A DNA stretch of 17,044 bases from Candidatus Jordarchaeales archaeon (GCA_038858525.1 JAWCFL010000034.1:1-17044); one strand, 5' to 3'; shown: positions 1 through 8,385, counted from the stretch's first letter. Notes: a model not told the origin generated them from the letters alone. Program-made: numbers and translations.

Positions 1-15
1 GGTGGGGGTGGGGGG

Positions 16-327
16 GTGGAGGAGGTGAGGGATGTGTTGTTGGGTTTGTTGGAGAAGTATTCGCGGGAGAACTCCAAGATGGATTTGGTTCTTCACATTG
101 TGTGGTCGGTTGTCGAGGCGCTTATACGTGACGCTGAGGAGTGTATGGTTGAGAACGTGCTGGATGACGTGTTGTCGCTTGGATACGCTCTTAGTTTGGT
201 TTCTCAGAGGCTGAGTAGTGATGAGAAGGAGTTGCTGAGGGGGGCGGAGAGGAAGCTGATGGGGGAAGTTAAGCGGGCGGTTAAAAGATGCATGATGAAA
301 GTTGCAAGAATACCTATAAGGGCTTGA
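16..327 (+). CDS. Hypothetical helical protein whose last codons and stop lie inside CRISPR repeat 1; possibly truncated by the array
   Basis: Frame is open from the window start. It has Glu/Leu/Val-rich helical composition and G-rich codons like other + strand genes here. Codons 301-327 (VARIPIRA*) come from the repeat. Start is uncertain (GTG 16, 25 or 34; GAGGTG at 22-27). Confidence 0.55.
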   Translation: MEEVRDVLLGLLEKYSRENSKMDLVLHIVWSVVEALIRDAEECMVENVLDDVLSLGYALSLVSQRLSSDEKELLRGAERKLMGEVKRAVKRCMMKVARIPIRA

Positions 328-531
328 AACCCGCTGAGCGAGGCGATTGGGGAGGGGAGGGAGGGGGTTGCAAGAATACCTATAAGGGCTTGAAACAACA
401 TTTTGCTTGATGAGCGCACGTTGGTCCGCAACGGTTGCAAGAATACCTATAAGGGCTTGAAACCCACGCTGCTGCCAGTACTGTTTCGCGGCGTTGACGA
501 GTTGCAAGAATTACCTATAAGGGCTTGAAAT
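301..531 (+). CRISPR. CRISPR array, 4 repeats / 3 spacers, repeat GTTGCAAGAATACCTATAAGGGCTTGAAAC (30 bp)
   Basis: Identical repeats at 301-330, 367-396 and 434-463. A variant terminal repeat at 501-531 has one extra T and a 3' C>T change. Unique spacers are 36, 37 and 37 bp. The GTTGCAA...TTGAAAC ends are typical of archaeal repeats and give + orientation. Confidence 0.95.
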
Positions 532-1073
532 GTTTCGTCTTGATGGAGCATTGTTCGCTAGCCTGTTGAGTTCTGCGTTACCGTGTTTTGTGGAGTGGAT
601 GATGTGCTTGAAATAGCTGTTAGGGAAGTGATTGCTATGTGTAGGCTTGAAGTGACTGACTGCCATGTCTTAATTGATGTTTGCTAGGTCTCCTATGTTC
701 GCCTTGCTTATTGTTATGGTTAACCCAAGTAATTATGCTTTGGAGGACGAAGTGTTTTCGAAGTTTAAAAGTAACATTTCGAGCAACCTGCGGGTCTCTT
801 GGTTTACGTTTTCATGTTCGGGAAAAACGGTCCATCACTCCCTAGACGTGTTTGCATTCTTTAGCAAGGCTCCTTTTCTAATCTAAATTTCCCTTTTGGG
901 ATAGTTTCATTTGGGGATAGTGTCATTTATGCTTGCCGGTTGTTTCGTGTCTATGTTTAGGTTTGGTGAGGTTATTGTGGCGTCTACTTCTTTATGCCTG
1001 ATTAGGCTCTTCGTGTCTTCTAGGTGGTCCGTCGTGTGAATCTATTTCTGGTGCCCGATTTCTAGCACCCGCC

Positions 1074-2124
1074 CTATTGTGAGGAGTATTTCTTGAAGAG
1101 GTTGATCATTCTGTCAACGTCTTCCTTGGTCTTTGCGACCTTTGACGTCCTTATGGCCTCCCTGACAGATTTCGAGTACTCTGAGACTTTTTCAGCAATG
1201 TACCTCGCCAATTCTGCGTCCATGCCTCTCCTCTTTGCAAGGTAGTTTGTCGTTATTTTCAAAAATTCATCCTTTATGTACTCTTTGAGGTGGAAGACCT
1301 GAAACCTGTCCAAAAGCTCACGTGGAAGTTTGTCGATCCTGTTGCATGCGGCTATAACTGAGCATGGGAACTTCTCAACAGCATGCATCTTGTGCTTTGT
1401 TACTATGATGCGTTGGGACTCCATGAGTGTTAGGAGGACGCTTAAGTCCTTCGGGTCGTCTATTTTCTCCAACTCGTCAATCAGTAGGATGCGGGGCTTT
1501 TCTTCAATTAACATGTCCCTGATGCCGACCTTGCTGCTAGTTCCTGCAGTTATAAATTTGGTGTTGGGAAGCCTTTCGATCTCCATCAGGAAGAGTGTCT
1601 TGGCTGTTCCTGGGGGGCCGACTAGCAGCACGTGGAACGGCTCATCTAGAGTGACGATCTTCAGCATAAAACTCTTCAAGTCGTCGTAGCCCTCTATGAC
1701 GTCAAACATGTCAGGAGGCACGCCACTCTCCACTTTCTCTGTAACGCTTTCATCGACTTGCTGTATGCTCTCATACTCCTCTATTTCCTTCATTATTCCC
1801 TCGCGATCCACGAGCAGGTACGACTTCCTCCTGCCGCCAAACGCCCTAACGATGCCTGCTATCAACAGTTTCTCCACAATCCTCCAGTGTACACCCACGT
1901 CCTTCCAGTCCCACAATGGTTTCAATCCAAGTTTTGATAACGTTTCGTTTTTCGCCCGAAGAATCTCGTCAACCTCAGATTGGTCGTAAACAGTGTTTCA
2001 ATCCAAGTTTTGATAACGTTTCGTTTTTCGCTATCTCCTGCTCCTCCTTTATTTCGTAATTTATTATTTTCTTCAACGCTTCCCTAATTTCGTCATTAGA
2101 TATTATGCTATACTTACTCGTCAT
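1074..2124 (-). pseudogene. wHTH + AAA+ ATPase (RuvB-like/MGE-type), 324 aa when reconstructed; interrupted by a 76-bp repeat+spacer insertion
   Basis: ATG at 2124 with SD GAGGTG reads MTSKYSIISNDEIREALKKIINYEIKEEQEIAKNETLSKLGLK and then stops in the insert (TGA 1975-1977). The downstream frame 1925-1074 has Walker A GPPGTAKT, Walker B LLIDELEK, sensor-1 AACN and Arg-finger LLDRF. Removing 76 bp fuses the two in frame (...SKLGLKPLWDWKDVGV...). Confidence 0.9.
1919..2031 (-). CRISPR. Single-spacer mini-array, repeat GCGAAAAACGAAACGTTATCAAAACTTGGATTGAAAC (37 bp) x2 with a 39-bp spacer
   Basis: Exact 37-bp direct repeats at 1919-1955 and 1995-2031 flank a unique 39-bp segment at 1956-1994. The minus-strand 3' end is the canonical ATTGAAAC. 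Confidence 0.8.
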
Positions 2125-2527
2125 CACTCACCTCACCACATTATTGATCGACTATATTCTTCATTGATGTTTCTTTTATCGCATCTCCGCCGATATTCTA
2201 TTTAGTACAGGAAGATTTGTTCCCATGCCTATTTAACGGATTCCTTTGGCGGTATGTTTAGGGTTAAATGGGGGTCGTTTGAAGACGTTTTTGTTGTTTT
2301 CCTTCAAGTCCCCGGGTACTAAACGCAAATATAGTTTTTCTTTCTTGACTCAGAGCTGGGTGAGTGTTTTTCTGGGGGGATTTGTCGTGTTTGGGTGTTG
2401 TTTTCGGAGTTCGAGGGGCATCCAGTCCCCCAGTGGAGCTTTCACCGCTCCCCCGGAGGTATTTCCTAGGATTTCAGTCCTCGCACCTCCAAAACACGCT
2501 TAATTCACCATTCACCACACAGCCTTT

Positions 2528-2571
2528 CAGAGTAACAGCTAACTGATGGCAGAGTGACAGCTAACTAATGG
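2528..2571. repeat. 22-bp tandem duplication (CAGAGT[A/G]ACAGCTAACT[G/A]ATGG), 2 mismatches
   Basis: Copies at 2528-2549 and 2550-2571, read directly. Confidence 0.75.
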
Positions 2572-2601
2572 AGCACCCACTATCCGGGAAACAGTAAAGG
2601 C

Positions 2602-2707
2602 AAGTGAGAACTGATCCGTGCATGTGCATCAGCCACTTCCTTTATCTTTTTCGGGATATTGATGTTCACCATTAGTGTAAGTGAGACCTGATCTGTGCGT
2701 GTGCGTC
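2602..2707. repeat. 29-bp imperfect direct repeat pair, period 77 bp
   Basis: AAGTGAGAACTGATCCGTGCATGTGCATC (2602-2630) vs AAGTGAGACCTGATCTGTGCGTGTGCGTC (2679-2707), 4 mismatches. Confidence 0.7.
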
Positions 2708-2944
2708 GACTACAAGCTTCAATCCTTCCGTTATACTTTTATCGGTGAACGGTGACGAAAACCCATTTCTCAGAGCCCGCAAAGCCCGCCACCAGCAAAC
2801 CATTAACCAGCGGACATAAACCACCCTATCCACCGGGGGAGGGGCGCGAACAAGTCAAGGCACTTAGCATGCAGTCCTCACAAAAAACATCAAAAAATAA
2901 CATTCAAAGAAGCAAAAAGGGGGGGATGACTGGTCAACTCAAAG

Positions 2945-3747
2945 CTAGCGGGGATGGGAGGAAGGAGGAGCAGGGCCTGACGGAGGAACAGACGGAGGAA
3001 CAGCAGGTCGAGGAACAGTGGGTTGAGAAACACCATACCTCTGAAAGGTACTATAGAAAGCCACTGCCCAAAGTATCGAAGACACAAACATTAGTATTAA
3101 TAGGACGACACTAACAATGTTTAGGATTCCTGCTGCTAGAGTGACTGAGGGAGACCCTGTATCTTCTCTTACTGTGGTTCCAGCGATGCCAGAAGTGAGC
3201 AAGAATGCACCTAGAGCTGTGAGTGAGAAAAACAAGGGCCAAATCGTTGGTTGAGTGACGCGCACTAGAAAACCTAGAAAAGATGGACTCTGTTCTACTG
3301 ATAATAACATGAATATATATATGGAACCGGTCCTGTTAATCTCTCTATTAATATTAAAATATATAGTATGAGGGTCACTGGGGAGACAATAAGACCAATG
3401 ATGAATGTGACCATTCCAGAGGTTCTTCCTGTGGCTTTATGGATGCCGTAGAAGCCTAAGCTAATCAGAAGGACGTGCAGAAACAGGAAAATCCCCGTCA
3501 TCGCTGAAACAATCCCAAAAGTCGGCCAAACAGATTCAACGACAAAGAGGTAGTTAAAGAAGAGTAACATTGCCATGGAGTAAGGTATCGGACGTATTGC
3601 AATAAACGGGGATGATAATAAATAGGCGATATAATCACCTATTGAATATAAATTGCTGAACAAGATTATGTGGTAGACGAATATTGGAAAGGCTATTGTT
3701 CCGATTATTCCTCCGGCCATCCCCATTAGTAGCATTGCTCTGCTCAC
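2945..3747 (-). pseudogene. Polytopic membrane protein with Pro-rich C-tail, split into two ORFs (3747-3295 and 3310-2945) by a frameshift at an (AT)5 tract
   Basis: Both ORFs are strongly hydrophobic and overlap at (AT)5, 3313-3322. Deleting one AT unit gives a continuous ~266-aa protein (...LTGPVPYIFMLLSVEQ...). They could alternatively be two genes. Confidence 0.65.
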
Positions 3748-3791
3748 TTTTTCTCTCCCCTTTAATTTTTTAGGAAAAAAATGTGTTTTTT

Positions 3792-3806
3792 TATTTAAGT
3801 TTTTTG
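3792..3806 (-). promoter_or_regulatory. Putative archaeal BRE-TATA promoter for the membrane-protein gene
   Basis: Minus strand reads CAAAAAA-CTTAAATA about 45 bp upstream of the GTG at 3747. Confidence 0.5.
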
Positions 3807-4244
3807 TAGTGGGTTGTTTGGTCTTGTTGGGGTTGTAGGGTGATTTTCGTTTAGCTGCGTGGGTGTGTTGGAGGCTTAAAGCGTTGTTTGAGCTAAAAGT
3901 GGATGCTGATCCTGCTTTCGAGAAGAGGGGGGAAGGCGATCCTGGCTTGCATTAAGAGGTGCCTCTTATCTGTCCCGTATTGTATAATCAGTAGTGATGG
4001 TGGATGGGGGTGAGGAGTTATGTTTCTATGTGGTTGGTGTTGACGAGTACGTTTGCGACTCGTAGAGGGGTCTTTATGGGAGGGGTTTCTAGGTTTGTGT
4101 TTTTGTTTTTCTTTGTGGGGTGGGGTTTGCTGGCGCTTGTTGTGTGGGTTTCGTGTGTTGCTGCTGTTGCGTGGGTTTTGGTGGTTATGTTTTTATTTTT
4201 GTTTTGTGTTGTTTTTTTGGAAGTTTATTTCTGGTGGTGTTGTT

Positions 4245-5684
4245 TTGGGGCGGACTGGGTCGACTTATAGGGCTAGGTTGGTTATGGTTTTTCATGCTTG
4301 TTTGGAGCTTCAGTCTGTTGATGGTGAGGTTCGTGTTGGTAGGCTTGCTGAGAGGGTTGATTTGACTGAGAGGGCTGTGAAGGATTATCTTGATGACCTT
4401 TCGAGTTTGGGTGTTTTGTCTTATAGGGGGGCGGGGAGGTATGTTGTTAATGAGGGTTTTGTTAAGAGTCTTGGTGAGGACTTGCTTTTTGAGCCCTCGT
4501 CTAGTGTTGTTATTGATGAGGGCTTGCTGCATGCTGGTTTGGTTGGTGTTGAGCCTGTTTCGAGGAAGGTTCAGCGTGTTTTGAGGAAGCTTGAGTTTCC
4601 CTTGGTTTCGGGGGAGGAGGTGAGGGAGCGGCTGGTTGCTGCGAGGGTTGGGGACTACGTTTTTCCGGTTAGGCTTTTGGGGGATGGGCTTGTTCTTCCG
4701 AGGTTTGCCGGTGACGTTCTTCTTGATGGTGTTTGGGTGGCTGGTTCTGCTCCTGCTCATAGTGTTCATAACTTTGTTCTTGGTGATTTTTCCGTGTTGA
4801 CTGTTGTTTGTCTGAGTGTTGGTGGCTTCGTGGGGCTGTTTGAGGGTGGTGTTCTTGATCATGAGAGGTCGGTTAGGAGGAGGATTCCTGACCTCCACTC
4901 CTTTAGGGGTGTGGAGCCCTTCGAGGAGGGGGACCCGTTCTTCGAGTTCTCGACGGACTTTCCGGAGCTTCTTCAGGCGGGGAGGAGTATTGCTGCGAGG
5001 TATCTTAGGGAGATTCAGCATTACAGGATGGGGATAAGGCTGATCGAGGAGTTTGGCGATAAGTTTGACTTCTACTTCCGGCTTGGGTCGCTTGTGCCTC
5101 ACGGCTTCCTCGTTGCCTCCAAGGTTCTGGTGAAGCTTAGGGATAAGTGTAACAGGTTGTTTTACGACCTGGTTAGGGTTGCAGGCGAGAAGGGGGTTAC
5201 GCTGGTAGGCGTTAGCCCCGTATCTATGGACAACGTTTTCTTCAGGGCGTGCAGCCAGGTGCTCGGCAAGATTCCGGGGAAGACGAACGACCTTAACTTT
5301 CTCTCCATTGTTTTGAGGGATAGGGACTCGACGTGCCTGATTGAGAGGGGGGAAGAGAAGGGGAAGCCTCCCGTGAGGGACGTCTACGAGTTTTACCTCT
5401 CGCGGAAGGGAATCGTGACGAAGTACGAGTTTGTGTCCAGGGATCCGCTGAGCGACCATAAGAGGGTGGCTGACGTAGCTTACACCCTGACCACGGCGCC
5501 TCTGAGGGAGCGGGAGGAGGCTGGGCCAAGCGTGGTCTCGGTGGCGAGGCAGGAGGCGGCGTTCAACCTTTCATCCCTCGAAAGGTCGGTTGAGCTAAGC
5601 CTCAGGGCGGGCTTCCTAGGAATGCTGGAGAAGATCCAGAGGAGGAGGGATGAGGAGAGGGCGAAGGAGGCGTTTGGAGGGTGA
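4245..5684 (+). CDS. N-terminal winged-HTH fused to a NurA-like (RNase H fold) domain, apparently lacking most catalytic residues
   Basis: Likely start is TTG 4245 after SD GGTGG; the track's 4053 start adds only low-complexity GT-rich sequence. HTH segment: VRVGRLAERVDLTERAVKDYLDDLSSLGVLSY. NurA-like blocks: WVAGS, REIQH, FRLGSL, LVGVS, NDLNFLSIVL, YEFYL...KYEF, GPSVVSVAR. It lies directly upstream of herA, the usual NurA partner. Confidence 0.75.
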   Translation: MGRTGSTYRARLVMVFHACLELQSVDGEVRVGRLAERVDLTERAVKDYLDDLSSLGVLSYRGAGRYVVNEGFVKSLGEDLLFEPSSSVVIDEGLLHAGLVGVEPVSRKVQRVLRKLEFPLVSGEEVRERLVAARVGDYVFPVRLLGDGLVLPRFAGDVLLDGVWVAGSAPAHSVHNFVLGDFSVLTVVCLSVGGFVGLFEGGVLDHERSVRRRIPDLHSFRGVEPFEEGDPFFEFSTDFPELLQAGRSIAARYLREIQHYRMGIRLIEEFGDKFDFYFRLGSLVPHGFLVASKVLVKLRDKCNRLFYDLVRVAGEKGVTLVGVSPVSMDNVFFRACSQVLGKIPGKTNDLNFLSIVLRDRDSTCLIERGEEKGKPPVRDVYEFYLSRKGIVTKYEFVSRDPLSDHKRVADVAYTLTTAPLREREEAGPSVVSVARQEAAFNLSSLERSVELSLRAGFLGMLEKIQRRRDEERAKEAFGG

Positions 5685-5689
5685 GGAGT

Positions 5690-7177
5690 ATGGGCGAGCG
5701 AGCCTTCGAGCTGGGAACGATAATATGTGAGGGCCAGACGCCTAACCACCTCGCCTTCTCTTTTCAGGTGGCTAGGGACGTCGAGGTTAAGGTTGGAGAG
5801 TACGTTGAGGTCCCGCTGGGCTTGAGCGTGATGGTTGGGCGCGTCTACTCGATTCACACTTATAACGAGTACTTTTCCAGCCCGGAGTTTCTCCAGTTCC
5901 ACCTCGAGGATGGGGTTCCGGTTCAGGCCCGCTTCCCGACGCGGATAGGAAGGTGGAGGGTGGCGAGGGTGAGGGTTGTTGGGGTGCTGCGGGGGGACAG
6001 GTTGCTGCCTCCCGAGGTTCCTCCAGAGCCGGGGGACACGGTTTACAGGGCTAAGCCCGAGCTTTTGGAGTCCTTCCTGAAGTTTAGGCCGGACGGGGTG
6101 TTTCTCGGGGTCATGAGGGGGAACAATGACGTTAAGGTTTTCCTGAACCCTGAGCTGCTTCTTCCATACCACGTGGCTGTTCTGGGGGCTACTGGGAGCG
6201 GAAAGTCCTATGCTGTAGGGGTGATCGTGGAGGAGCTTCTGGAGAAGGGGATGCCTGTGGTCGTCGTCGACCCTCACGGGGAGTACAGGTTTTTCTCGCA
6301 GAGGAACGATAACCCGGAGGAGGTTGAGAGGGCCAGGAGGATGGGGGTGACGCCCAGGGGTTTCCCGACCATGGTTTACTCGCTTGGGGAGGACGGGGAC
6401 AGGAAGCTGTCCATAAGCATAGATGACCTTAACCCCTACGCTCTGGCCGAGGTCTGCGACCTGAGCGACGCGCAGTCAGACCTCCTTTACCTGGCGTTCA
6501 GGAAGCTTGGCGGTGGAGGTTACGGGCTGGATGAGCTTGTCGGTGCGGTCAAGGCGGCGGCTAGGGAGTGGGGGTTTCAGAAGAACACGTTGACGGCGGT
6601 CCTCAGGAAGATACAGGCGCTGAACGAGTTCGTTTTTTTCGGGAAGAGTATAAGTGTGGGTGACCTCGTCAAGCCAGGCCACTTGTCTGTTCTAGACCTG
6701 AGTGGGGGGGTGGATGAGGAGATTAGGAGGACTGTTGTTGGAGTGGTTTTAGAGAGGATGTTTAACGCTAGGAGGAGGGGGGAGATTCCTCCAGTGGTGG
6801 TGGTCGTCGAGGAAAGCCACAGGTTCGCCCCTCAGGGGGTGAGGAGCTACTGTGGCTCGGTGCTGAGGAGGATCGCGAGGGAGGGGAGAAAGTTCGGGGT
6901 GACGCTTTGCCTGACCAGCCAGAGGGTTGCGGGGCTAGATAAGGACGTCCTGACGCAGTGTGGAACGAAGATCATCCTACGCATAGAGGGAGCCTACGAC
7001 ATAGAGTACCTCAAGCCGATCTTAGACTACGCCAGTGCTGATGAAGCTGAGAGGATACCTCTCCTACCTACGGGGACCGCCATGGTTACCGGAATGGCGA
7101 CGAGGACGCCGATTCTGGTGGATGTGAGGCCGAGAAAGACGAAGCACGGGGGAGGACACCAGGCGTTCTGGAGATAG
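5690..7177 (+). CDS. herA: HerA-family ATPase/helicase (HAS barrel + FtsK/HerA motor)
   Basis: N-terminal HAS-barrel-like region, Walker A HVAVLGATGSGKS, VVDPHGEY, Walker B VVVEESHRFAP, and AREGRKFG...TSQR. ATG 5690 follows SD GAGGAG, 5 nt after the NurA-like stop. Confidence 0.93.
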   Translation: MGERAFELGTIICEGQTPNHLAFSFQVARDVEVKVGEYVEVPLGLSVMVGRVYSIHTYNEYFSSPEFLQFHLEDGVPVQARFPTRIGRWRVARVRVVGVLRGDRLLPPEVPPEPGDTVYRAKPELLESFLKFRPDGVFLGVMRGNNDVKVFLNPELLLPYHVAVLGATGSGKSYAVGVIVEELLEKGMPVVVVDPHGEYRFFSQRNDNPEEVERARRMGVTPRGFPTMVYSLGEDGDRKLSISIDDLNPYALAEVCDLSDAQSDLLYLAFRKLGGGGYGLDELVGAVKAAAREWGFQKNTLTAVLRKIQALNEFVFFGKSISVGDLVKPGHLSVLDLSGGVDEEIRRTVVGVVLERMFNARRRGEIPPVVVVVEESHRFAPQGVRSYCGSVLRRIAREGRKFGVTLCLTSQRVAGLDKDVLTQCGTKIILRIEGAYDIEYLKPILDYASADEAERIPLLPTGTAMVTGMATRTPILVDVRPRKTKHGGGHQAFWR

Positions 7178-7369
7178 GAGCAGGAAGGACGTTAAGCGGA
7201 TAACGGGTCTGACGGGGTGCTGGTTCTCGAAAAAAGGGTTCTTTCGTGATGAACGCTGGGGTGGCTTCAACCAGCATCTCCACTTTTCACGCCTCGCGTT
7301 GTTGGAACGAAAGGGTCATTTATTCGTTCTGCTCATAGAGTGATTGTCCTTTTCGTGGTGGGCGGGATT

Positions 7370-8197
7370 GTGCCTTTGGGTTTGGTTGTGAAGGTTTACG
7401 CTTTGAACTCTGGGGGAGTGAAGCGCTTCTCAGGTCACCTTGTTAGAGGAGGGCTACTGGGATTTTTCAGCAGAGTTGACCCTGATCTCGCCGGTGCGCT
7501 TCATGCACCGGACCAGCTTAGGCCTTACAGTGTTTCTCCCATTTTTCCATTGGGGGAAAAGAGGATCCACGGAGACCTTTTACATGTTAAGACGGGGGAC
7601 GAGTTCCAGTTTCGCTTAGGATTCCTCGTGGATGACATCGGAAAGAGGCTACTCGAGCGGCTTTTCGACTTAAAGGTTAAGCTGGGAGAGGTAGAGTTCT
7701 CGCTGGTCGAAGTCAACCTGAGAAAGAAGAACTACGACGAGTTCGTTAAGGACGTGAACGTAAGCGACAGGTTTAGAGTGTTTTTCAGGACGCCGACGCA
7801 GCTCTCAGTGCGGGGCGTCGACTTCCCCTTCTTGTTCCCTGACCCACGCTACGTTTACCCCAGTATTGCGAGGCTCTGGAACGCCTTCGCCCCCGAGTAC
7901 GTTAGAGTCGACGTTGACGAGCTTTACAGGTGGGTTTCGGACAACGTTTACGTGCGCAACTACTCCCTCAGGACGGTGAACGTGACGATGGGGAAGGAGA
8001 GGAGGGTGGCGGGCTTCACGGGATACGCGGACTTCTACATGAAGAGCACCGACGGTTACGCTTCATGGGTCACGATCCTCTCAGAGTACGCCACATACTC
8101 AAACGTCGGAGTGAAGAGGACGGGGGGAATGGGCGTGGTGGACGTCGAGCCCCCAAAAAAGGGAAAAAGCGAAGCCGACTCCCCCCAGGATGCGTGA
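7370..8197 (+). CDS. cas6: CRISPR precursor RNA endoribonuclease Cas6
   Basis: Motifs GHLVRG, ALH...RPYSVSP, FRTPT, FPDP...SIARLWNAF and GFTG, plus the C-terminal Gly-rich loop NVGVKRTGGMG. Likely start is GTG 7370 (track start 7340). Confidence 0.93.
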   Translation: MPLGLVVKVYALNSGGVKRFSGHLVRGGLLGFFSRVDPDLAGALHAPDQLRPYSVSPIFPLGEKRIHGDLLHVKTGDEFQFRLGFLVDDIGKRLLERLFDLKVKLGEVEFSLVEVNLRKKNYDEFVKDVNVSDRFRVFFRTPTQLSVRGVDFPFLFPDPRYVYPSIARLWNAFAPEYVRVDVDELYRWVSDNVYVRNYSLRTVNVTMGKERRVAGFTGYADFYMKSTDGYASWVTILSEYATYSNVGVKRTGGMGVVDVEPPKKGKSEADSPQDA

Positions 8198-8277
8198 CTG
8201 GTTCTTGATGTTCAAAGCCACGGTGCAGTAGCCTGTGCGGCGAAAATTACCGTGAAGAGAGCCACGAGCTTCCACAC

Positions 8278-8385
8278 TTATCAGGGTTACTATCTCTCGA
8301 TTTAATTTGTAGCCGATTGAGGATTAGGGGTAAATACCGATGAACTTAAGTATCAGGGTTGTTGTCTCTCGATTTAATTTGTAGC
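8278..8385 (-). CRISPR. Candidate degenerate single-spacer mini-array, repeat ~GCTACAAATTAAATCGAGAGACAACAACCCTGATAC
   Basis: 35-bp direct repeats at 8279-8313 and 8351-8385 (3 mismatches) are separated by 37 unique bp. Minus-strand ends GCTACAA.../...TGATAC resemble GTTGCAA.../...TGAAAC. The unit begins about 80 bp after the cas6 stop. Confidence 0.5.

Follow-up and report, generated by a model that had tools for sequence, protein, structure and literature searches.

CRISPR RNA (crRNA)-like regulators of the CreA/CreR type carry true or degenerate canonical repeats, and match promoters in part. A different source of small repeat-spacer units is off-target integration by the type I-E machinery of Escherichia coli, which creates 'neo-CRISPR' loci (Nivala, Shipman and Church 2018), as described in PMC7054753 and PMC9456107. 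The E. coli events relied on over-produced Cas1-Cas2 and supplied oligonucleotides, according to PMC7054753, and the preprint bioRxiv 10.1101/148544 calls natural evidence in two other species circumstantial and the commonness of the process unclear. In Pyrococcus furiosus, Cas1-Cas2 performs full-site integration in vitro at repeat-like non-CRISPR stretches (Grainy et al. 2019, PMC6698737). A text search of the literature for natural off-target cases returned only 'ectopic' acquisition within arrays. Here we analyze three repeat-spacer structures, array 1 and units 2 and 3, in a contig of 17,044 bp from Candidatus Jordarchaeales archaeon (GCA_038858525.1, JAWCFL010000034.1:1-17044; contig C34), which is referred to as a whole as the window. 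It is very probable that array 1 is an ordinary CRISPR array and that units 2 and 3 are scars left where spacers were integrated off target.

The host genome is metagenome-assembled (63 contigs, 2.09 Mb) and its lineage is probably Jordarchaeales (Asgard). It was scanned as a whole, by BLAST and with numpy, for direct repeats that need not be perfect and are spaced 40-200 bp. Apart from recognized arrays and from tandem repeats in coding sequence, whose periods are for the most part multiples of 3, the scan returned five two-copy units and no more. Since every period of 72-76 bp in the genome belongs either to a recognized array or to one of these five solitary units, the three structures of the window are not due to chance. 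All three are confirmed within 8.1 kb, as reported in an earlier note on this DNA, with the correction that the repeat of unit 3 measures 35 bp and not about 36. The note had taken them together as one hotspot of array genesis; we find that array 1 on one side and units 2 and 3 on the other are two different phenomena. The genome-wide scan added three further units, on contigs C15, C19 and C29, and all five have periods of 72-76 bp.

Single-spacer units and their empty sites

Unit 2 lies in a minus-strand gene for an AAA+ ATPase (AAA/MCM P-loop; 1074-2124) and splits it into a head of 49 amino acids (aa) and a tail of 283 aa. In gene orientation, a 37-bp target that natively codes for AKNETLSKLGLK and ends in GGATTGAAAC (1995-2031) is followed by a spacer-like insert of 39 bp (1956-1994), which adds a frameshift and a stop, and then by a second copy that matches the first exactly over its 37 bp (1919-1955). 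The frame starting from the ATG at 2124 reads through the first copy and stops inside the insert. The earlier note had proposed that genes are knocked out in this way and had suggested testing for a restored frame upon removal, and this holds here: excision of one period (76 bp) yields a single AAA+ ATPase frame of 324 aa. The restored protein aligns end to end, with 65% identity, to a 328-aa frame of a sister genome of the same genus (G002; 2.14 Mb, 8 contigs), and the junction is ungapped (AKNETLSKLGLKPLWDW in the restored protein versus AKDEVLSKLGVKPYWDW). Its length also agrees with those of a homologue in genome G047 (317-aa frame) and of a paralogue on host contig C52 (338-aa frame). Because the sister ortholog is uninterrupted across the junction, the 'repeat' of unit 2 is duplicated native coding sequence. 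The full insert of unit 2 had no match in its own genome or in 30 relatives (up to 3 mismatches allowed in the relatives), and the duplicated 37-mer of the unit was not found in a metagenome scan.

Unit 3 starts 82 bp downstream of cas6 and consists of two 35-bp copies (8279-8313 and 8351-8385), with no strand assigned, on either side of a spacer-like insert of 37 bp (8314-8350). The two copies differ by three transitions. An empty site was found in a metagenome contig from SRR25243437 (L185), which represents a more distant relative whose Cas6 is 86% identical to that of the host. In this contig the segment is present once, bordered on the left by the sequence that flanks copy 1 and on the right by the one that flanks copy 2, and nothing in it corresponds to the 37-bp insert. 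Since copy 2 is nearer to that single copy, copy 1 mutated after the event. The intergenic region after cas6 in the sister genome was not alignable for an empty site of unit 3, a minus-strand frame spanning the unit had no homologues, and its 21-22-mer was not found in the species-genome scans. Tandem duplication as the source of unit 3 was ruled out, given that the stretches that precede, separate and follow its copies show no relation to one another. In units 2 and 3 alike, a repeat-length piece of native DNA is duplicated around an unrelated insert of spacer length.

The same anatomy was found at the other three sites. The C15 unit (C15:37573, 39+35 bp) lies within an ELFV dehydrogenase domain and divides it into pieces that cover the overlapping profile positions 4-122 and 110-215, and its excision joins frames of 139 and 218 aa into one of 302 aa. 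This gene of the Glu/Leu/Phe/Val type (L023 3632-4898; L179-L181) is present in all assemblies as one N-terminal-domain open reading frame (ORF) and two catalytic-domain ORFs, and a further frameshift, also in all assemblies, is a second disruption besides the scar. The C29 unit (C29:11732, 37+38 bp) is inserted in frame in a DUF2400 protein, to which it adds 25 residues, while the C19 unit (C19:18942, 37+38 bp) is intergenic and has a paralogous single copy of its target 2.6 kb away. Three of the five solitary units are therefore inside genes, two of which are knocked out, and the visible effect of the scars is gene damage: the AAA ATPase and the dehydrogenase are broken and the DUF2400 protein is lengthened. 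Each of the C15 and C29 units has in the sister genome a single stretch with which both of its copies align, and its insert is without counterpart there. Relatives thus provide empty sites for four of the five units (units 2, C15 and C29 in G002, unit 3 in L185), and the two copies are identical in four of the five. The sister genome, scanned whole by the identical procedure, has no solitary unit, which makes the units particular to the host lineage; its arrays are long ones of the 36-nt family at four contig ends, plus a 24-nt family.

The origin of one insert could be traced. All 38 positions of the C19 insert are identical to C50:9832-9869, inside a host cas1 gene, and this protospacer starts at codon phase 0 of the segment within the Cas1 family match, in the first of two cas1 genes. 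The C19 insert is therefore a spacer-size copy-and-paste of host DNA. The five inserts are mutually unrelated, and the C19 insert was the only one matched in the search of the own genome. No protospacer was found for the inserts in the whole sister genome, and exact 26-nt cores of four inserts, including those of units 2 and 3, had no match in IMG/VR. A resolvase and TnpB (Cas12f1-like_TNB) insertion is present about 0.5 kb downstream of the C19 scar in some strains (L168, L172, L174 and L175, around 3770-5550) and is missing in others, including this genome; the scar is the same in both.

That the units are products of assembly or binning has next to no probability. The genome is a metagenome-assembled one of 63 contigs, and the array on contig C33 is visibly collapsed in it (4 repeats versus at least 25). 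However, several independent assemblies from different assemblers and samples agree on the filled alleles: three NCBI metagenome-assembled genomes have an identical unit 2, three assemblies show the same split gene at C15, and ten (NCBI, JGI, ENA) have an identical C19 unit. Logan contigs, which are assembled from 31-mers, end or begin exactly at the first unique 31-mer next to the duplicated 37-, 38- and 39-mers (window 2002, C50:9861 and L023:4084), where a true repeat would force a break in a k=31 assembly. One of them, L156, starts at window 2002, the first unique 31-mer past the copy at 1995-2031. One contig of SRR27730046 passes through the cas1 protospacer, which is only a hint that the C19 unit could be rare in that sample.

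In none of the assemblies was a second spacer found at a checked unit (unit 2 in three, C19 in ten), and all units of the host are single-spacer. The earlier proposal that array genesis had been captured at 1-spacer and 3-spacer stages does not survive this comparison. Most likely, the units are scars that have been inherited and are inert, and they do not work as arrays.

Adaptation modules and target choice

The host genes for adaptation that the earlier note had suggested looking for are present in two modules. One, on contig C33, is a cas1-cas2-cas4 set of type I-A associated with a 36-nt repeat. The other, on contig C50, comprises cas4, two tandem cas1 genes, cas2 and csx3, and adjoins a cmr (type III-B) operon. 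The tandem cas1 genes encode 302 and 285 aa ahead of cas2, with cas4 divergent (C50, L021 8350-10229; L160 1215-2985). In another assembly, a leader-like T/G-rich tract lies by the C50 cas4 and is followed by the 37-nt repeat of the array that starts contig C49. The periods of the native arrays are mostly 73-76 bp for type I-A (36-nt repeat) and 73-75 bp for C49 (37-nt repeat), as compared to 72-76 bp for the scars. Host repeats measure 36 and 37 nt and spacers mostly 37-40 bp; unit 2 is composed of 37+39 bp and unit 3 of 35+37 bp.

To our knowledge, a target duplication of repeat length is combined with an insert of spacer length by one process only, Cas1-Cas2 integration, which would be the agent here. 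In the proposed mechanism, Cas1-Cas2(-Cas4) loaded with a prespacer of 37-39 bp would attack the chromosome on opposite strands about 37 bp apart, at sites that are loosely repeat-like, chiefly at a TTGAAA(G/C) end, and gap repair would then duplicate the 37-bp target on either side of the insert. The exact duplications measure 37, 37, 37 and 39 bp, which under a simple chance-border model gives a likelihood ratio of 24 for a 37-bp over a 36-bp stagger and points to the type III-B-linked module. The enrichment of TTGAAA-like ends for which the earlier note had suggested a test was also found. All five targets match the TTTCAA handle-end core in at least 4 of 6 positions at a fixed offset, as 8.7% of random genome 37-mers do, and a resampling test on the summed core scores gave P ~5e-6. 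Unit 2 shares 9 nt, GGATTGAAA, with the end of a canonical repeat. This likeness of the host targets fits the in vitro behavior of the P. furiosus integrase (PMC6698737).

Several points weigh against this explanation. The likeness between targets and repeats is weak over their whole length, with single-site P values of 0.013-0.5 and significance at two of the five sites. The module clues conflict, the 37-bp duplication pointing to the C49/C50 system and the TTTCAA-like end to the 36-nt and 30-nt repeats; since stagger and end motif disagree, either module may be responsible. Both Cas1-Cas2 as the agent and the choice of module are deduced from sequence features. No protospacer could be identified for four of the five inserts, which hence offer no protospacer adjacent motif to check. 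The copies of unit 3 differ at three positions, so this unit is older or has been altered since. Finally, the units are fixed in the close assemblies examined, which are a near-clonal set (99.9-100% identical), and any ongoing activity would therefore be hypothetical.

With the link to Cas1-Cas2 indirect and four inserts of untraced origin, another agent might be considered, either an integrase or transposon that carries about 38 bp and makes duplications of about 37 bp, or repair-associated templated insertion. We regard this as very unlikely. The five inserts are unrelated to each other and so are not copies of one element, the lengths of duplication and insert coincide with those of host repeats and spacers, and the targets have the canonical repeat-end motif in common. 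Casposons make target duplications of about 14-15 bp, which is too short for the 37 bp observed.

The solitary units might instead be working mini-arrays or crRNA-like regulators that are transcribed, cut by Cas6 and loaded on an effector, with C19, for instance, guiding an effector to the host's own cas1 as autoregulation. Several observations agree with such a role. Unit 2, C15 and C19 are kept unchanged in all assemblies examined, perfect identity of the copies is the rule at four of the five units, and the C19 spacer reproduces cas1 sequence without a mismatch. Unit 2 is in sense orientation in a transcribed gene, with nine nucleotides of its GGATTGAAAC end identical to the canonical 3' handle region, and unit 3 is very close to cas6. 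On the other hand, what is duplicated in units 2 and 3 is ordinary DNA, coding or intergenic, that folds no better than shuffles (z from +0.6 to -0.1), whereas the canonical 36-nt repeat forms a strong hairpin (-11.9 kcal/mol, z -4.3). Beyond the handle end the targets are unlike canonical repeats, a canonical-like 3' handle is seen in unit 2 but not in unit 3, no unit has gained a second spacer, and retention in a near-clonal set is a weak sign of selection. The C19 unit also differs from the CreA/CreR type: its flanking copies are native intergenic sequence, and its match is full-length within the cas1 ORF, unlike the partial promoter match of crRNA-like regulators. A working role is thus unlikely, and integration scars remain our preferred reading of these units. 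The idea of the earlier note that mRNAs are turned into pre-crRNAs finds no support here.

Orientation follows no common rule among the units. Judged by likeness to the handle end, the orientation relative to the gene is sense for unit 2, antisense for the C15 unit and ambiguous for the C29 unit. The co-orientation with genes that the earlier note saw at array 1 and unit 2 is therefore not general. The G-L-K that it read at the repeat ends is in frame only in unit 2, while array 1 reads GCT TGA, with a stop. Of the three repeat 3' ends that it found similar, the third, CCCTGATA, is only weakly like the other two.

No shared leader was found at any of the units. Of the five solitary units, three are no more than about 10 kb away from cas genes or arrays (rough post hoc binomial P ~0.005), a clustering that is suggestive only. 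A more dynamic version of the scar explanation can be conceived, in which a relaxed-target adaptation module, perhaps the type III-B-linked one, keeps seeding single-spacer units near CRISPR-cas loci; some of these would be transcribed and processed, the cas1-derived spacer of C19 could feed back on adaptation, and units inside genes could seed arrays. We consider this version improbable.

Array 1 and the surrounding locus

Array 1 (301-531, plus strand) is built from the 30-nt repeat family R1, GTTGCAAGAATACCTATAAGGGCTTGAAAC, with three exact copies at 301-330, 367-396 and 434-463 and a degenerate fourth at 501-531, which has one additional T and a T in place of the final C. Its three spacers measure 36, 37 and 37 bp. 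It thus has what defines a canonical array, namely at least three near-identical direct repeats and unique spacers of similar length. R1 recurs elsewhere in the host, with eight copies at C33:1026-1515 adjoining the type I-A cas operon, and amounts to twelve copies in the genome plus a solitary degenerate one on contig C45 (L026; 10933-10960). The latter is slightly shortened and lies after a second type III (RAMP-rich) gene cluster. In a metagenome contig (L154), cas3-cas4-cas1-cas2 are followed by an AT-rich leader and then by exact R1 repeats, and a metagenome strain 97.9% identical to the host across window 3809-5517 (L155) has the exact R1 repeat with spacers different from those of array 1. 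The R1 repeat therefore recurs in other arrays that have cas genes and a leader, and array 1 is an ordinary member of an established repeat family and not a new locus. It is probably old and static.

The full model of the earlier note, in which all three structures, including array 1, are nascent arrays in a local hotspot of leader-independent adaptation, has in its favor the proximity of three of the five solitary units to cas genes or arrays. Array 1 also shares no leader with the other R1 copies of the genome when the array flanks are compared. In general, the array flanks of the host have no common sequence, and the G/T-rich tracts by several arrays are low-complexity. Against the model stand the established status of R1, in the host as well as on L154 after cas1-cas2 and a leader, and the different spacers of the L155 strain. 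Moreover, array 1 occupies the place of a long array in the sister species, where the counterpart position by the 3' end of the AAA gene holds a 36-nt-family array with 49 repeats or more. A 2-spacer intermediate is seen nowhere in the genome scan or the assemblies. We find this model hardly credible. Membership of each repeat in an established family, which the earlier note had named as evidence against its idea, applies to array 1; the repeats of units 2 and 3 are native sequence. Its proposal of natural neo-CRISPR-type integration finds support in the anatomy and empty sites of units 2 and 3, reaches further to the C15, C19 and C29 sites, and has to be abandoned for array 1. The Cas1 of L154 is only 26-28% identical to either host Cas1, and an assignment of R1 to a host adaptation module was rejected on this ground.

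At its left end the window runs on into contig C33, the two overlapping by 2 nt, and contigs of GCA_038866325.1 and GCA_038846665.1 consist of the reverse-complemented window followed by C33. The reconstructed locus runs from cas6, the HerA-type gene and the broken AAA gene to the four R1 repeats of array 1, a small ORF and a Bles03-family gene. It continues with the eight R1 repeats, a 27-nt junction and an array of the 36-nt hairpin repeat. A G/T-rich tract by the leader-proximal repeat and two ORFs without clear family then lead to the type I-A operon of C33 (cas1-cas2-cas4-cas7-cas5-cas3'). Array 1 would thereby sit at the trailer side of the main CRISPR-cas locus of the genome. The 36-nt array has at least 25 repeats in GCA_038866325.1, with identical leader-proximal copies; its 4 repeats on C33 here reflect either an assembly collapse or a shortening in this strain. 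The Bles03-family gene (C33/L020 205-885) and a 103-aa ORF lie between two R1 arrays that point the same way, as though a gene cassette had divided one array.

The 103-aa ORF (16-327, plus strand) runs 27 nt into array 1 and takes its stop codon from the first repeat (GCT TGA). It matched no Pfam family above the cut-off, and a DNA search with window 1-1073 found no match in four relatives. Between array 1 and the AAA gene, a non-coding stretch of 118 nt (642-757) is 75% identical to C28:7091-7208, in whose vicinity no array was detected. Two tandem 22-bp units, 91% identical, are present in non-coding DNA upstream of the AAA gene (2528-2571). In the L155 strain (Ga0105163_1016775), an R1 array is fused directly at position ~3803; the strain is without the 3.3 kb that bear the disrupted AAA gene along with two ORFs for small membrane proteins, and is thus a deletion or rearrangement variant.

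Further into the window, the gene for cas6 (7340-8197, plus strand) encodes one of three Cas6 (PF10040) matches in the host genome. It lies downstream of a gene for a HerA-type ATPase (5681-7177) and an ORF without family match, and an hdrABC-like cluster is found beyond it. A trio of an ORF of at least 437 aa, HerA-type ATPase and Cas6 (window 4053-8197) recurs in L185. The first ORF of the trio has no Pfam family, and effector genes are not adjacent to the trio. In the sister genome (C3:459333-466241), cas6 is present and the AAA ATPase ortholog is about 5 kb off. Low-complexity G/T-rich tracts (window 3780-4270; C33 1801-1900; C49 280-500; L160 69-340), with GC skew up to +0.49 and AT skew down to -0.54, adjoin several arrays, and one is upstream of the ORF preceding the HerA gene. 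An Rfam search of the window gave no match. Look-ups of L022:791-2386 and L025:3177-4481 likewise returned nothing, probably owing to different start codons.

Comparison with known systems

Demonstrations of off-target integration have so far come mainly from over-expressed E. coli Cas1-Cas2 and from work in vitro, and the evidence on its natural occurrence, frequency and cost has been largely circumstantial. The five events described here provide natural data on how targets are chosen (with a TTGAAA-like end and a stagger near 37 bp), on what adaptation costs in fitness and on the initial step that a de novo origin of arrays would require. With regard to the latter, single-spacer scars can persist without growing, which speaks against arrays arising easily. 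In annotation, 'CRISPRs' of two copies that lie inside genes should be taken as insertion scars, and the genes broken by them as pseudogenes.

Array 1 compares well with archaeal arrays of 30-nt repeats ending in CTTGAAAC. It resembles them in the recurrence of its family in the genome and in other metagenomes, in its unique spacers of 36-37 bp and degenerate terminal repeat, and in that R1 is likewise found by cas1-cas2 with an AT-rich leader (L154). Unlike ordinary 30-nt arrays, it is found in a host without a cas1 close to that of the L154-type operon, and the R1 arrays of this host are downstream of the array of another repeat family and are split by the Bles03-family gene.

The solitary units share with CreA/CreR and solitary mini-arrays their nature as very short repeat-spacer(-repeat) units off the long arrays, some with self-matching spacers. 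They differ in that their 'repeats' are duplicated host sequence with only the end motif in common, and in that the traceable spacer is a perfect coding copy. The P. furiosus integrase is also archaeal, and its attack points are one repeat length apart, as in the host scars. While that activity was observed on plasmid DNA in vitro with 30-bp spacing, the host scars are chromosomal, have a spacing of about 37 bp and are fixed in a wild population.

The neo-CRISPR loci of E. coli are alike in having a spacer-sized insert within a repeat-length chromosomal duplication, outside arrays and at target-like sites, and genes can be hit in both. Unlike them, the host events are natural, archaeal and inherited; they number five per 2.1 Mb, show a 37-bp duplication and have empty sites in relatives. 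The IHF-like guidance described in PMC9456107 has no known counterpart in this host. The host case is thus a natural, archaeal and multi-event instance of an already known process, with proof from empty sites.

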